From Patescibacteria group bacterium (GTDB lineage: Bacteria; Patescibacteriota; Patescibacteriia; 2-12-FULL-57-11), in the NCBI GenBank assembly GCA_004297205.1, contig SCUL01000002.1, forward strand, positions 381,418 through 445,417: a stretch of 64,000 nt of DNA, given 5' to 3'. The notes beneath the pieces were generated by a model. It made no database searches. It saw nothing but the letters and a program-made list of their open reading frames with translations, and had not been told where the DNA came from. The position numbers and the translations under genes are program-made. Below are positions 50,255 through 55,191 of this stretch, piece by piece. The first letter of the stretch is position 1. Each line of letters opens with the position of its first letter.

Positions 50255-52258
50255 CTATTTGGGTTTATCGAAGACGATCTTGCGGGTCTTCTTTTCCTCT
50301 TTATAGAAGAGCATCGAGTCCCCTTCCGCAAGGGGCGCGGAGGTCTTCACCTTCATGCCGCCTTCGGAACCCATGCGCAGCTCCGGCACTTCCTGCTTGC
50401 CGCTCTGCACCGTCTTGACCTCGCCCTTGGCGAGCGGCTCGCCGCCGCGGCGCGCCTCGAAGGAGAGCCCCTTCACGATGCGGCCGTCCTCGACGCGGCC
50501 GCCGACGATCTGCTCGTCGCGCTCGGTGCGGAAGATCTTCAGGATCAAGAGCCGGCCGAAGTCGGTGCGGACGACCTCCGGGGTCAGCATGCCCTCGAGC
50601 TGGGCGGTCAGGTCGTTGAACAGGTCGTAGATGATCTTGTAGGTCTTCACGGAAACGCCCTTCTCGCGGGCGAGTTCGGCCACCGGCGGCGGCACGAGCA
50701 CGCTGAAGCCGACGACATGGGCGCCCGTCGCTTCGGCGCGCAGCACGTCCGCCTCCGTGATGTTGCCGAGGCCCTTGGAGACGACGTTCAGCCCCACCTC
50801 GGGATGCGAGAACTTTTCGAAGGACACGAGGATCGCCTCGAGCGAGCCGAGCACGTCGGCCTTGATGATGAGCGGCACGAGCTTCTTTTCCTCCGCCTCT
50901 TCCTGAGACGCCTTCTCGACCGTGGCGATCTTCTCGCCGGTGGCGCGCAGCTCGCGCACCCGCTCCAGCTTCTTCCCCGCCTCCGGCACTTCGACGACGT
51001 CACCGACCTGCGGCGCCACGCGGAAGCCGAGGATGCGGACCGGCGTTCCCGGCGGCGCCGAGTCGACGTTCTCGCCGCGGTAGTTCTTCATGGCGCGGAC
51101 CTTGCCGTACGAGTCGCTGCCGATGGCCAGTTCTTCGTTGCGCTTGAGGGTGCCGTTCTGGACGAGCAGCGTGGCCACGACGCCTTCGCCGGGGTTGACG
51201 TGCGACTCGATGACCGTGCCCTGGGCGCGGCGGTTGGGGTTGGCCCGGATCTCGTCGGCTTTGACGTCGGCGACGAGCAGGATCAGTTCCAGAAGTTTGT
51301 CGATGTTCAATCCAGTCTTCGCGGAAATCGGCTGCATCGGAATGTTGCCGCCCCACTCCTCCGGCAGCACGTTCAATTCGGAAAGTTCGCGCTTGACGCG
51401 CTCCGGGTCGGCCTCCGGTTTGTCGACCTTGTTGATGGCCACGACGAACGGGAGTTTGGCCGCTTCGATGATCTTGATGGCTTCCTTGGTCTGCGGCTGG
51501 ACGCCGTCGTCGGCGGCGACGACGAGAATGGCGATGTCGGCGATCTTGGCGCCGCGGGAGCGCATGGCCGTGAACGCTTCGTGGCCCGGCGTGTCGATGA
51601 AGGTGATGAGACGCCCGTTCTTCTGGGTCTGGTAGGCGCCGATGTGCTGGGTGATGCCGCCCGCTTCTCCGGCGGCGACGTCGGCCGAGCGGATGGTGTC
51701 GAGCAGTTTCGTTTTGCCGTGGTCGACGTGGCCCATCACGACGATGACCGGCGGACGCGCCACGAGCGAGCCCTTGGCTTCGGCGCCGACCGCTTCCTTG
51801 ATGATGTCGCCGGTCGACAAGACTTCGGCCGGCTGGTCCCCTTCGGCCAGCGGGCTCACCTGGAAGCCCAAATCCTCGGCCACGATCGAGGCCGTATCGT
51901 AGTCGACGCGCTCGTTCAAGGACGCCAGAATGCCGTTCTTCATGAATTCCTGGATGACGCGGGTCACCGGCAGGCCCAGGCGCGTGGCGAAGTCGCGCAC
52001 TGTGATGACGGGCGGGAGCTGCACCGGTCCGCGCTCCGTGGCCAGCTTCTTGAGTTCGGCGGCGGCCGCTTCCTTGGCGGCGGCGCGCTTCTTCTCCAGC
52101 AGCTGGGCGATCTGCGGCCAGGACTCCATGACCTTCTTGGCGGTGCGGTCGTCGATCTTGATGGCGCGCCGTCCCACGTCGAAGCCGGCGTCGGGCAGAA
52201 TGCCGCGCAGGTCCTCGGGCGTGACGCGCAATTTGCGGGCCAGTTCGGTGACGTTCAT
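50255..52258 (-). CDS. infB: Translation initiation factor IF-2 (short form)
   Basis: 667 aa. G-domain ([17 protein letters not shown]) and the C-terminal beta-barrel domains. Confidence 0.95.
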
Positions 52259-52270
52259 GCGTGGGCCACT

Positions 52271-53344
52271 CTACCCGCGCAGACGAGTAACGTCAACGTG
52301 CCGCTCCCAGACCTTATGTCGTAGGGTCCGGGACAAGAATTGGGCATCGGCGTGGACGCACAATCCCATATAAGAACTGAGGTTTTCGATGGTGGCGCGG
52401 CGCAGCATCCGTTTCGCCGTTTTCGTCCGAAGCACCGTCGCGTGCGGCAAAAGCACGTATCCGACGAAGTCGATGCCTTGCGTCCATGTGCGGACGACGA
52501 CCTTCCCGGGATGCAAGGTGAGCTTCAATCGTTCGGATAGGAAGCTGTTGATGCGCGTCGCCTTTGCCTGCGCATCCGCTGGGGATGCCGCGAGAGACAC
52601 GAAGTCGTCGCAGTAGCGCAGGTAGTGGCGGAGTCGGAGCTCGTGTTTCACGAAGCGGTCGAGTTCGTGGAGGTAGACGTTGGCGAACAGCTGCGACGTG
52701 AGATTGCCGAGCGGAATCCCTTTTCCGGGAGCATCCGAAAAACTGCCGATGATGTTCCCGAGAAGTCGAAGGATGCGCTCGTCGCCGATCCGCAGACGCA
52801 GCAAGTCTGCAAGAATGCCGTGGTCGACGGACGCAAAGAACTTCCGGATGTCGCACGTGAGGGCGTAGACGGTCCGCGTATTGTTGAAACTGGCTTGCCG
52901 GAGAAATGTACGCAACCGAGCTACGGCGGCGTGCGTCCCCTTTCCGACACGGCAGGAGTAACTGTCAAAGATGAAACGCGGCTCAAAAAGCGGATCGATC
53001 ACGTTCATGGCCGCCTGGTGCACGACGCGGTCGCGGACGTTCGCCTTGTGGATCGAGCGCTGCTTGGGGTCGAAGACGGTGAACGGATGATACGGACCGT
53101 GCGTGAAACGGCCGTTCGCGAGATCGTCGTGCAACAAAAAGAGATTGTCCTCAAGGTGCCGCTCGAATACCATGACGTCATGGCGAGAGCGTTTGCCTTT
53201 CCGGAACCGTTCCCAGGCAAGGAACAGATTCTCAAGCGAGCACAGCCGCTCAAACAATCCTTGTTCTCCATGAGTTACCCCCCCCCGACGCAAATTTGAA
53301 CCGCAGAACCAGTTGCCGGGCGGCCCGACGGACATTCCGATCAT
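52271..53344 (-). CDS. DGR reverse transcriptase
   Basis: 357-aa ORF with RT motifs 1-7. Motif 4 reads GIPLGNLTSQLFANVYL: the [IL]GxxxSQ signature of DGR RTs, in place of the QGxxxSP found in group II intron RTs. The catalytic YCDD and FFASVDH motifs are present. N-terminal LFERLCSLENLFLAWERFRKGKR is typical of DGR RTs. The exact start is uncertain because the most upstream start overlaps avd on the opposite strand. Confidence 0.9.
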   Translation of the reverse strand: MIGMSVGPPGNWFCGSNLRRGGVTHGEQGLFERLCSLENLFLAWERFRKGKRSRHDVMVFERHLEDNLFLLHDDLANGRFTHGPYHPFTVFDPKQRSIHKANVRDRVVHQAAMNVIDPLFEPRFIFDSYSCRVGKGTHAAVARLRTFLRQASFNNTRTVYALTCDIRKFFASVDHGILADLLRLRIGDERILRLLGNIIGSFSDAPGKGIPLGNLTSQLFANVYLHELDRFVKHELRLRHYLRYCDDFVSLAASPADAQAKATRINSFLSERLKLTLHPGKVVVRTWTQGIDFVGYVLLPHATVLRTKTAKRMLRRATIENLSSYMGLCVHADAQFLSRTLRHKVWERHVDVTRLRG

Positions 53345-53666
53345 CCATACACTCTACGACGCTTATACGGCGTGGCATCATCTCCTGTTGAAGTTTCCCA
53401 AGTCGCAACGCTACACCCTCGGTGAGACCTGTGACCGGCAGCTATTGCAGACGCTCGAGCTGGTCCTCGGTGCGGCATCCGTCCGAGAGCCGGACACGAA
53501 GCTGGATCGTCTGCGCGAAGCAAGCGCAAAAGTCGACATCCTCAAGCTGCTGATCCGCTTGTCGAAGGATTGTTCTTGCACCTCCAACCAACAATACCTC
53601 GACATGCAATCCCGGCTCCAGGAGGTCGGCAAGATGCTCGGCGGTTGGATGAAATCCATTTTCTGA
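53313..53666 (+). CDS. avd: DGR accessory variability determinant (Avd; four-helix-bundle family)
   Basis: 117 aa. Contains FPKSQRYTLGETCDRQLLQTLELVLGA and C-terminal QEVGKMLGGWMKS, which closely parallels the Bordetella-phage bAvd QVETAQVLIAEVGRILGSWIARV. It is on the strand opposite to the RT, TR and target gene. The apparent start is TTG. Confidence 0.8.
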   Translation: MPGGPTDIPIIHTLYDAYTAWHHLLLKFPKSQRYTLGETCDRQLLQTLELVLGAASVREPDTKLDRLREASAKVDILKLLIRLSKDCSCTSNQQYLDMQSRLQEVGKMLGGWMKSIF

Positions 53667-53704
53667 ATCAAAGGCCCGGCCGAAGCCGGGCCTTTGCTAC
53701 GAGA

Positions 53705-53840
53705 ACTCCCGCAGGGCGGGAACCGAGTAGTTCGAGTTGTCGTTGCTGTGCCAGTTGGCGTTCAACTTCACCTGCTCGTTGTCGGAGTTGAAGTTGACGT
53801 ACGGCACGTTCTGCCAATCCACCTCGTCCTTATCGGGAAC
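53705..53840 (-). repeat. DGR template repeat (TR), 136 bp
   Basis: Identical to the VR at 121/136 positions. All 15 differences are adenines in the TR (minus sense). In its reading frame the TR is dense in AAC (Asn) codons (NFNSDNEQVKLNANWHSNDNSNY). Embedded in an 81-codon remnant ORF (53697..53942). Confidence 0.93.
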
Positions 53841-54115
53841 CGTCCAAAAGTACGTCCGTGCCTTCCAGACCACCGGACACGGACGCATCCATGTCCTGTA
53901 TTTTATGCGGAATCCAATGGGTTGATCCCCGATTCCAAGCACAGACGCGGAGTACTCATCGGCCGCGGCGCACGCTCCGACGATTCATCGACCGTCGGAC
54001 TCTGGCGTCATATGCGGCGATAAGGGATTTCGGCGACCGACGTCCCTGCCTGCAGGCAGGCGGGCGTGAACGACGATACATGAGCCTAGTCTCCATGCCG
54101 ATCATAACAAAAAAA

Positions 54116-54180
54116 GAACGGGGCTCCCACACGCCAAGGTCCGAAGACCAAGTTGTGTGAAAGCCCCAAGGGACCAAGTA
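54116..54180 (-). terminator. Compound hairpin + U-tract immediately downstream of VR/target gene
   Basis: In minus sense: an outer stem GGGGCUUUCACAC/GUGUGGGAGCCCC encloses the GGUC-UUCG-GACC tetraloop hairpin, followed by guucuuuuuuu. This is the position where DGRs carry the target-recognition hairpin. Confidence 0.6.
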
Positions 54181-54190
54181 TCAAGTCCCT

Positions 54191-55039
54191 TCACTCCCGC
54201 AGGGCGGGAACCGAGTAGTTCGAGCTGCCGTTGCTGTGCCAGTCGGCGCTCAACAACACCCGCTCGCGGCCGGAGTCGAAGCTGACGTACGGCACGTCCT
54301 GCCAATCCACCTCGTCCTCAGCGGGAACGTTGATCTCGTACCCGGCCGCGAACATGCCGGGGACCTCGTCGTAGTCGATGGCCCGGACGATCTCCGGGAA
54401 CATCCACGCGACGACGAGCATCTCGTCGGCCGGCGACGACTTCTTGCTCCGGACGCGCTCGATGCTCGGCCGCTTGCGGTGGGCGTCGAGGTCGAGCACG
54501 ACCCACTCGACGACGGGCTTGTGCGAGTCGTTGCCCGCGAGGAGCCGGAGGCGCTCGACGGGATCGCTCCCGAAGCGCTTCTGGAGCTTCGCGTCGTTGC
54601 CCGTGTAGGGCGACGGGGCGGAGCGCAGATGCTCCCAGCGCCAGAACTTCGCGCTGGTGAAGACGCGCCGGATCTCGCTAGCGTGGGCCTCGAAGGTCTT
54701 TTGGACCCCCGGGGTTCCCTCGCCGATGCGGATTCGGAGCGAGCGCACGCAGAGGGCTCCCTCTGGCCACTCGGGCGCGCTCTGGGCGAGCTTCTCGAAG
54801 ACCTCGTCTCCGAAGCCCCAGCCGCCCGCCTCGCTCGCCGCCTTGAAGCGGCTGAGCTGCTCGTCGACCGAGAGGATGAAGGCGTTGACCTCCGGCGCCT
54901 CGAGCGTCTCGCGCATCTTCGCGGCGAGACGCGGGTCGCCATTCACCCGGCGGATCAGCTCGGCGCTGAACCCCGCCTTGTGGATGACCCGCTTGAACTC
55001 ATCGAACTCACCGACTCCCAGATCGAAAAGGCTGGCCAT
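54191..55039 (-). CDS. DGR target protein (variable protein), cytoplasmic, unknown fold
   Basis: ORF 54191..55150 trimmed to MASLFDLG..., preceded by AGGAGGG (282 aa). No signal peptide or TM segment. The C-terminal 45 aa are encoded by the VR. The C-type lectin/FGE-type RGGSW...GFR pattern is absent. Confidence 0.75.
   Translation of the reverse strand: MASLFDLGVGEFDEFKRVIHKAGFSAELIRRVNGDPRLAAKMRETLEAPEVNAFILSVDEQLSRFKAASEAGGWGFGDEVFEKLAQSAPEWPEGALCVRSLRIRIGEGTPGVQKTFEAHASEIRRVFTSAKFWRWEHLRSAPSPYTGNDAKLQKRFGSDPVERLRLLAGNDSHKPVVEWVVLDLDAHRKRPSIERVRSKKSSPADEMLVVAWMFPEIVRAIDYDEVPGMFAAGYEINVPAEDEVDWQDVPYVSFDSGRERVLLSADWHSNGSSNYSVPALRE
54193..54328 (-). repeat. DGR variable repeat (VR), 136 bp, at 3' end of target gene
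   Basis: See the TR entry. It encodes ...VPAEDEVDWQDVPYVSFDSGRERVLLSADWHSNGSSNYSVPALRE-stop. The 3'-terminal ~20 nt (ggttcccgccctgcgggag) are identical in TR and VR, making them a candidate IMH. Confidence 0.93.
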
Positions 55040-55191
55040 GTGGCACACCCTCCTATGCCGCTCGGCTGACCGCATCCGGGAACCGCCCCGGAATTGGCTC
55101 ACCTCCAAAAAGCGACGATGAAACATATCATAAAAATCTGTGATTGTCAAGCATCGAAAGGCGATCCTAAAGGTGCTATGCTATCTGCCCC

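Follow-up and report, generated by a model that had tools for sequence, protein, structure and literature searches.

How is a diversity-generating retroelement (DGR) expressed when its accessory gene, avd, lies between the template repeat (TR) and the reverse transcriptase (RT) gene but on the opposite strand from both? The question is raised by positions 52271-55150 of a 64-kb stretch of DNA (here called the window; 65% GC) from contig SCUL01000002.1 of GenBank assembly GCA_004297205.1, a metagenome-assembled genome of Patescibacteria whose record is titled "Patescibacteria group bacterium." An earlier note on this DNA regarded the inverted avd as a departure from canonical DGRs and suggested that a TR-RT transcript, being antisense to avd, implied an unusual expression logic. 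As we read it, the locus is very probably an ordinary, apparently active DGR of the named B3 type, in which the TR RNA would be a separate transcription unit; with no TR-RT co-transcript required, none need run antisense through avd.

A complete DGR in the layout typical of its lineage

The list of open reading frames (ORFs) gives the minus-strand order as target ORF, a 352-nt spacer, TR, the plus-strand avd, and RT. This cassette is one complete DGR, with a DGR-type RT, an Avd, an adenine-specific TR/VR pair, and a target gene that ends in the VR. The RT domain matches RVT_1 (PF00078, 62.7 bits), and the translation contains the DGR-type motif LGNLTSQ (GIPLGNLTSQLF), whose residues (L183, G184, N185, L186, T187, S188, and Q189) are invariant in a 33-sequence RT alignment; the form [LIV]GxxxSQ in RVT_1, replacing the QGxxxSP of group II introns, is a mark of DGR RTs. 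The repeat is 136 nt long, its two copies are 89% identical, and on the minus strand 15 of 15 mismatches fall at TR adenines. Because all 15 differences are an A in the downstream copy, that copy is the TR and the other, at the end of the target gene, is the variable repeat (VR), and the cassette has apparently been active recently. The two repeats share an identical GC-rich 3' end (GGTTCCCGCCCTGCGGGAGT), with no distinct initiation of mutagenic homing (IMH*) element seen; a second VR was sought across the window, and none was found.

The avd gene is free of internal stops and frameshifts. Its product matches Pfam PF22296 (bAvd) with 62.3 bits (cutoff of 40) and NCBIfam DivGenRetAVD with 74 bits, which is under the equivalog cutoff of 80, and covers profile positions 2-104 of 104. 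We found 41 homologues with identities down to 32%, the closest being 77% identical over 117 amino acids (aa) with conserved motifs kept. TTG 53313 is its sole usable start, because upstream the frame is open to TGA 53271-53273 and holds no other ATG, GTG, or TTG, and because starting at the next in-frame codon downstream would remove helix 1. The earlier note was thus right that avd is an intact plus-strand gene between a minus-strand TR and a minus-strand RT.

An RT profile search of species-representative genomes returned 80 Patescibacteria loci with RT identities of 44-71%, of which 75 carry enough upstream DNA to be informative, the other five ending at the RT 5' end. An Avd profile match lies on the opposite strand directly 5' of RT in all 75. 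About 60 of the loci have a TR, with mismatches specific to adenines, immediately ahead of the 3' end of avd, and a VR that is upstream by a further 220-520 nt on the TR strand. The nearest homologues of RT and Avd, like all 80 loci, come from Patescibacteria, Uhrbacteria, Saccharimonadia, and similar groups (a few record titles are mislabeled). This is architecture B3, TR-(avd)-RT, in which parentheses denote the reverse strand and which, according to Wu et al. (2018, NAR 46:11, PMC5758913), who named it, accounts for 90% of DGRs from the candidate phyla radiation (CPR). The window is a typical member of that architecture and not a local rearrangement: target/VR, TR, reverse-strand avd, and RT have the same order and strands, the host is a CPR bacterium, and there is no other accessory gene. 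Nothing architectural sets the window apart, and the 75-locus survey reproduces the CPR norm. Recognizing the reverse-strand avd as the standard CPR layout averts a false claim of unusual architecture; what the earlier note described is a correct view of an already known arrangement.

A proposed separate unit for the template RNA

On the expression logic that we favor, the locus would consist of four units (coordinates are collected in Table 1): (i) the target gene with its VR, closed by its own terminator; (ii) a TR RNA of about 425 nt, made up of the TGTTATGAT promoter (54109-54101), a leader of about 255 nt, the TR, and a terminator hairpin (53696-53669); (iii) avd, on the opposite strand and converging on the same hairpin; and (iv) RT, which diverges from avd over 55 nt and starts at TTG 53257. 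We infer that the Avd and RT proteins, supplied in trans, work on a TR RNA transcribed by itself, after which the adenine-mutagenized cDNA would replace the VR.

TABLE 1 Positions of DGR features within the window
Feature	Positions	Strand	Remarks
DGR RT gene	52271-53257	-	Most likely 328 aa from TTG 53257; GenBank TAK05029.1 extends to ATG 53344
Divergent avd-RT junction	53258-53312		55 nt; predicted site of the RT promoter and of all or part of the avd promoter
Poly-G tract (G9)	53278-53286	-	C9 on the plus strand; directly 5' of TAACTC on the RT-sense strand
avd	53313-53666	+	117 aa, TTG start, intact; GenBank TAK05030.1, "four helix bundle protein"; exact NCBI match
Hairpin between TR end and avd stop	53669-53696		12-bp GC-rich stem, UUCG loop (TR-sense strand), A-tract and T-tract flanks
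TR	53705-53840	-	Rich in AAC (asparagine) codons in the VR reading frame (ORF 53697-53942)
Structured leader of TR RNA	53841-54094	-	About 255 nt; conserved in blocks with compensatory changes (alignment A5)
Extended -10 promoter TGTTATGAT (predicted)	54101-54109	-	Perfect motif match; inferred transcription start near 54094
Region 3' of VR	54110-54190	-	Inverted repeat, four CTYGG pentamers, terminator-like hairpin
VR	54193-54328	-	Reaches the stop codon of ORF 54191-55150
DGR target ORF (maximal)	54191-55150	-	VR at 3' end; true start probably downstream of the promoter-like site at 55150-55122

The proposed TR promoter recurs among relatives. In 47/59 related loci the VR-TR spacer contains the consensus TGnTAnnnT, at a median distance of 234 nt 5' of the TR, against a background of about 0.2 per 200 nt. 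In the alignment the extended -10 motif stands just 5' of the conserved leader, which begins about 10 nt past the motif and reaches to the TR. The leader itself carries a strong covariation signal, with compensatory changes at 27 of 37 pairs in a 13-sequence alignment and, when RNAalifold was applied to 46 loci, 39 pairs in nine helices, 36 of them with double changes. Paired cells amount to 87.9%, compared with 58.0 ± 0.8% after shuffling (0/500) and 40-48% when partners were slid; the covariation score is 0.846, versus 0.287 for shuffled and 0.12-0.24 for slid alignments. Because G-U pairs are abundant on the TR-sense strand, we assign the leader to that strand. A scan of 53200-54400 against Rfam at E <= 1 gave no match to the leader and no RT-x motif, the sub-threshold matches (rsmX, SorX, and CC0196) being driven by the terminator hairpin. 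We put the leader forward as a candidate for a cis-acting domain in the template RNA of CPR DGRs. Pairing of one leader block (GAGTACTCC) with the TR 3' end (GGAGTTCTC) was considered and rejected: it forms 8 of 9 pairs in the window and fails in two relatives (L004 and L009).

The space between the TR end and the avd stop is taken up by a hairpin. Folding and a terminator scan show 9 GC pairs among the 12 of its stem, which is flanked by CAAAGG (5') and CCTTTG-ATTC (3'). Hairpins of at least 7 bp occupy this position in 57/64 loci, with unrelated stem sequences, and in 50/64 a T-tract comes next on the TR-sense strand; in 16/64, the window included, an A-tract also precedes the stem. The hairpin has the form of an intrinsic terminator, predicted to be bidirectional in the window's subgroup. 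Taken with the motif and the leader, it suggests, as the most economical reading of this sequence, a TR RNA gene that is complete in itself (promoter, leader, TR, and terminator) and about 425 nt long.

The avd-RT junction and the start of the RT gene

GenBank starts the RT at ATG 53344, giving a protein of 357 aa and a 32-nt head-to-head overlap with avd. The overlap of about 30 nt reported by the earlier note does exist in this annotation, and it is probably an artifact of annotating the longest RT ORF. We are fairly confident that the RT starts at TTG 53257, in which case there is no overlap and 55 nt separate the two genes; the start in TAK05029.1 is likely misannotated. An independent gene caller placed the start at TTG 53257 (328 aa) in the second assembly of the window strain (L081; 1,930 nt, ending short of the VR), and GGAG is found at 53266-53269, 8 nt 5' of this codon. 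RT homologues begin 0-10 residues ahead of a conserved LFE.I.S.ENL block, and the RT profile match begins at its LFE motif.

Many RT homologues are annotated with an N-terminal extension of the form MG(I/M)SPGPP...GGG. The conserved part of this extension is the exact antisense reading of the conserved Avd N terminus, (L)LRGGPGDIPI, so that the conservation of the extension peptide is explained by avd. Compared with the closest strain, the 29-residue extension of the window is identical at 10/11 residues where it is antisense to avd, at 3/9 from the avd start to the poly-G tract, and at 7/9 from the tract to the RT core, whereas the cores are 78% identical. The flanks of the tract are unconserved among relatives and differ by indels that are not multiples of three, and three relatives (L001, L004, and L005) have in-frame stops between the tract and the RT core. 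Within the 32-nt overlap, the closest strain shows three substitutions, two synonymous and one non-synonymous in both frames, a comparison by eye that is uninformative.

An out-of-frame ATG (53269-53271, minus strand), 7 nt past the poly-G tract, opens an 88-codon ORF (MENKD...) one base off the RT frame. This ATG is also present in the closest strain (L093), and one added base would yield a typical RT N terminus, MENKDLFERL.

A scan for the sigma-70 consensus found no -35/-10 pair above threshold in the junction, the sole sites lying at 55150-55122 and 52296-52268. Junction lengths in relatives range from -2 to about 80 nt. The distance between the conserved Avd and RT protein cores is -6 to about 80 nt, except at four loci where the Avd match is partial or atypical and the value is larger. 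A junction this short means that the avd and RT promoters must overlap, either with one another or with the 5' end of the opposing gene. One subclade (L018-L027, L031, L032, L036, L041, L042, L047, L049, L050, and L070) has avd and RT ATGs back to back (-2 to 13 nt apart; e.g., CATATG), a -10-like TATAAA/TATAAT on the avd-sense strand within RT codons 2-5, and TGGTATATC on the RT-sense strand within avd codons 5-8, an arrangement that implies leaderless or 5'-overlapping divergent mRNAs.

A poly-G tract at the avd-RT junction

The G9 of the junction is the only G or C homopolymer of at least 8 nt in the window. Runs of G7-G13 occur in 40/73 related junctions, always with G on the RT-sense strand and even in genomes of 33-45% GC; runs of at least 8 nt number 38 in 4.3 kb of junctions versus 5 in 544 kb elsewhere, an enrichment of about 1,000-fold. 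The run is directly followed by T in 28/40 junctions and then by A in 22/40, often as TAnnnT, and in seven junctions the order is poly-G-TAnnnT-N6/7-ATG, as in the geometry of leaderless promoters.

Two of the five runs outside junctions, both in L071, read G10-TATAAT-N6-ATG and G10-TGATAT-N6-ATG (L071:3404-3413 and L071:5253-5262). The former precedes an unrelated gene whose product starts like a signal peptide (MRLKSVFSLFILSIMFFS); the latter precedes a second avd, which shares a strand with weaker RT matches downstream of it and possibly makes up with them a second DGR in canonical order. Since these runs stand before -10 boxes, poly-G behaves as a promoter-associated element, and promoters of this kind, poly-G plus -10, may be general in these bacteria. 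Three other readings of the tract were rejected: a surrogate Shine-Dalgarno sequence, as its distance to unambiguous RT ATGs ranges from 7 to 35 nt; coding sequence, given its variable length and the in-frame stops in relatives; and an assembly artifact, given its presence at the same site in 40 independent assemblies. Two relatives whose junctions are of the compact ATG/ATG kind instead carry a tract of G10-G11 on the TR-sense strand between the TR end and the avd stop (L018:3614-3624 and L019:3615-3624), a placement that the idea of a promoter spacer leaves unexplained.

In three relatives, tract length differs between assemblies of the same strain. The P0034 strain has G9 six times and G10 four times, with 0 mismatches in the 981-nt RT gene, and the P0084 strain has G9 twice, G10 six times, and G11 twice, with 0-1 mismatches in the 981-nt RT gene. 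The closest relative of the window has G9 three times and G10 once between identical junction flanks (the RT gene is outside this comparison), while the window's own strain has G9 in both assemblies, which are identical across the 221 nt aligned. When metagenomes were searched with the junction of the window strain, no matches and hence no new alleles came up; the corresponding search for the P0034 strain gave three matches, all G9 and two of them previously known. Three short Logan contigs stop at or near the poly-G.

The tract may be a phase-variable promoter spacer. It is also possible that the length differences come from Illumina or assembler homopolymer errors, or that the poly-G has a structural role in which it does not switch. 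The fullest form of the model joins two parts: a template that would be a free-standing noncoding RNA of about 425 nt, with a 5' structured domain of nine covarying helices and a tetraloop hairpin doubling as terminator, and a hypermutable poly-G spacer in the RT (perhaps also the avd) promoter that would switch diversification through G9, G10, and G11. We put this combination forward tentatively, as possible but short of probable.

Alternative readings of the locus

On a reading that extends the antisense control suggested by the earlier note, one minus-strand transcript would carry both TR and RT, and avd would be controlled by antisense RNA or by interference between transcripts. TR, antisense avd, and RT are indeed collinear, some read-through of the hairpin is conceivable given its modest T-tract, and the A-tract expected of a bidirectional terminator is present at few loci (16/64), but a hairpin of at least 7 bp with a TR-sense T-tract separates TR from avd in 50/64 loci, the TR has a conserved promoter motif of its own (47/59), and RT junctions hold their own -10-like elements by the poly-G, including the seven in leaderless geometry. 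The reverse-avd layout is, moreover, fixed across a huge clade and so is no regulatory innovation peculiar to this genome. We therefore consider antisense control of avd through a TR-RT transcript quite improbable. Its companion suggestion, an avd promoter inside the RT 5' end, fares better in part: with so short a junction, that promoter must lie in or beside the RT 5' end, which is plausible clade-wide, although none is convincing in the window. A true RT start further downstream, one of the findings that the earlier note named as counting against its reading, is largely what the evidence points to; it removes the overlap, but the resulting 55 nt do not amount to a roomy, normal intergenic promoter region.

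It is unlikely, if a little less so, that the annotated overlap is real, with translation of RT from ATG 53344 (extension peptide MIGMSVGPPGNWF), 32 bp of shared coding sequence, and the poly-G serving as a Gly-Gly-Gly frameshift switch. The 357-aa GenBank protein, the similar extensions annotated in many homologues, and the RT gene call in the closest strain, which shifts with the tract from 325 aa at G9 to 294 aa at G10, would fit this reading. Against it stand the antisense origin of the conserved residues (GGPGDIPI in Avd), the 3/9 identity of the stretch that is free of avd constraint beside cores at 78%, the in-frame stops of three relatives, the non-triplet indels, and the start of the RT hidden Markov model match at LFE. 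That avd is instead a decaying pseudogene left behind by an inversion, the DGR working without it, might be argued from a TTG start with no obvious Shine-Dalgarno sequence and from the NCBIfam score of 74 under a cutoff of 80, but it is extremely unlikely for a gene whose profile match is full length and uninterrupted, whose closest homologue is 77% identical over all 117 aa, whose orientation is kept in 75/75 relatives, and whose TR/VR pair implies recent activity.

Several points weigh against a separate TR unit and an RT that starts at TTG 53257. Promoters, terminators, and transcription starts are predicted here by consensus matching in an uncultured lineage. In the window, the search for an avd promoter and Shine-Dalgarno sequence turned up nothing convincing, the best -10 candidates, read by eye, matching 3-4 of 6 positions. 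The RT frame is open from ATG 53344 across the G9, and TTG is a weaker start than ATG, so a longer RT isoform may be made in the G9 state. Transcription starting about 7 nt past TAACTC would leave GGAG outside the RT mRNA, and for that reason the promoter model and the Shine-Dalgarno model for this RT cannot both be right. The T-tract of the hairpin (CCTTTGATTC) is modest, so that transcription may in part run on into antisense avd. Handa et al. (bioRxiv 10.1101/2023.10.23.563531), whose analysis 5' of the TR was limited to 40 nt, described tetraloop-capped, Avd-binding stem-loops just 3' of the TR in 207/278 Avd-containing DGRs and named CPR among the lineages with similar RNA elements; by analogy, the window hairpin may be such an Avd-binding stem-loop, instead of or besides a terminator.

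Relation to known systems

The DGR of Bordetella phage BPP-1 (mtd-avd-TR-brt) resembles that of the window in having an RT with [LI]GxxxSQ, an Avd, an adenine-specific TR/VR pair of about 135 nt with the VR at the 3' end of the target, and, in its spacer (Sp) region, a tetraloop-capped stem-loop just 3' of the TR. In BPP-1, however, avd, TR, and brt share a strand, with avd upstream of the TR, and the functional DGR RNA takes in the last 20 nt of avd and a spacer of about 140 nt 3' of the TR, whereas the window has about 45 nt, essentially one hairpin, from TR to the avd stop and a large structured RNA 5' of the TR. An inverted avd right behind the TR leaves no space for a 3' spacer RNA of about 140 nt like the one by which cDNA synthesis is primed in Bordetella; the covarying 5' leader is the obvious candidate for that priming role in the B3 class of CPR DGRs. 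The transcription logic of these DGRs may differ from the Bordetella paradigm on two counts, the free-standing template RNA and the poly-G spacer. Apart from the 5' position of the structured RNA, the departures of the locus from that paradigm are those already known for B3.

Structured RNAs beside bacterial RT genes are also known from Rfam as the motifs RT-1 to RT-19. Among these, RT-10 is a DGR RNA, the TR-brt spacer of BPP-1 (Weinberg et al. 2017, PMC5737381), whereas the window leader is 5' of the TR, not in a TR-RT spacer, and has no Rfam match at E <= 1. The accessible portion of the paper that defines B3 (PMC5758913) makes no mention of a TR-RNA promoter, a structured leader, a terminator hairpin, or a poly-G tract. 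No description of a 5' leader was found in the DGR literature examined, which did not include Paul et al. 2017, a dedicated paper on CPR DGRs; the novelty of the noncoding features is provisional, as that paper may describe some of them.

Homopolymer-linked phase variation is known in the literature from the poly-G of Treponema pallidum tpr genes, and phase-variable promoters with homopolymer spacers include those of Neisseria meningitidis porA and opc and of Bordetella fim. The DGR junctions are like these in having a G/C run of 7-13 nt that abuts a -10-like hexamer and differs in length among otherwise identical sequences; they differ in that the -35 is only weakly recognizable and the window strain has G9 in both assemblies. 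In the literature searched, no paper connects DGRs with homopolymer tracts or phase variation. If the tract does switch, poly-G slippage would be a contingency locus controlling a mutator, on or off within a population, and the tract offers a testable idea for how organisms with tiny genomes might gate a dangerous mutagenic enzyme.

Other features of the locus

The target gene product has no match in Pfam or NCBIfam scans. The sigma-70 site at its 5' end reads TTGACA-17-TATGTT. On the 3' side of the VR, a 7-bp inverted repeat (AAGGGAC/GTCCCTT) begins 3 nt past the VR, and the four CTYGG pentamers (first bases at 54178, 54170, 54152, and 54138) are spaced by 7-18 nt. Across 62 loci, CTYGG averages 1.9 per 100 nt after the VR versus a background of 0.21, and AT-rich relatives have looser CTTNG-like repeats there. 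Inverted repeat and pentamer array (about 54134-54190) may together form a target-site recognition element. Just beyond them, the terminator scan places an intrinsic-terminator-like hairpin with a T7 run at 54130-54110 on the minus strand.

At its other end, the DGR sits immediately 5' of infB, an essential translation gene: the RT stop (52271-52273) is 12 nt before the infB start at 52258 (minus strand), and the second sigma-70 site of the scan, TTGACG-17-TAGAGT (52296-52268, minus strand), lies inside the final RT codons, upstream of infB.

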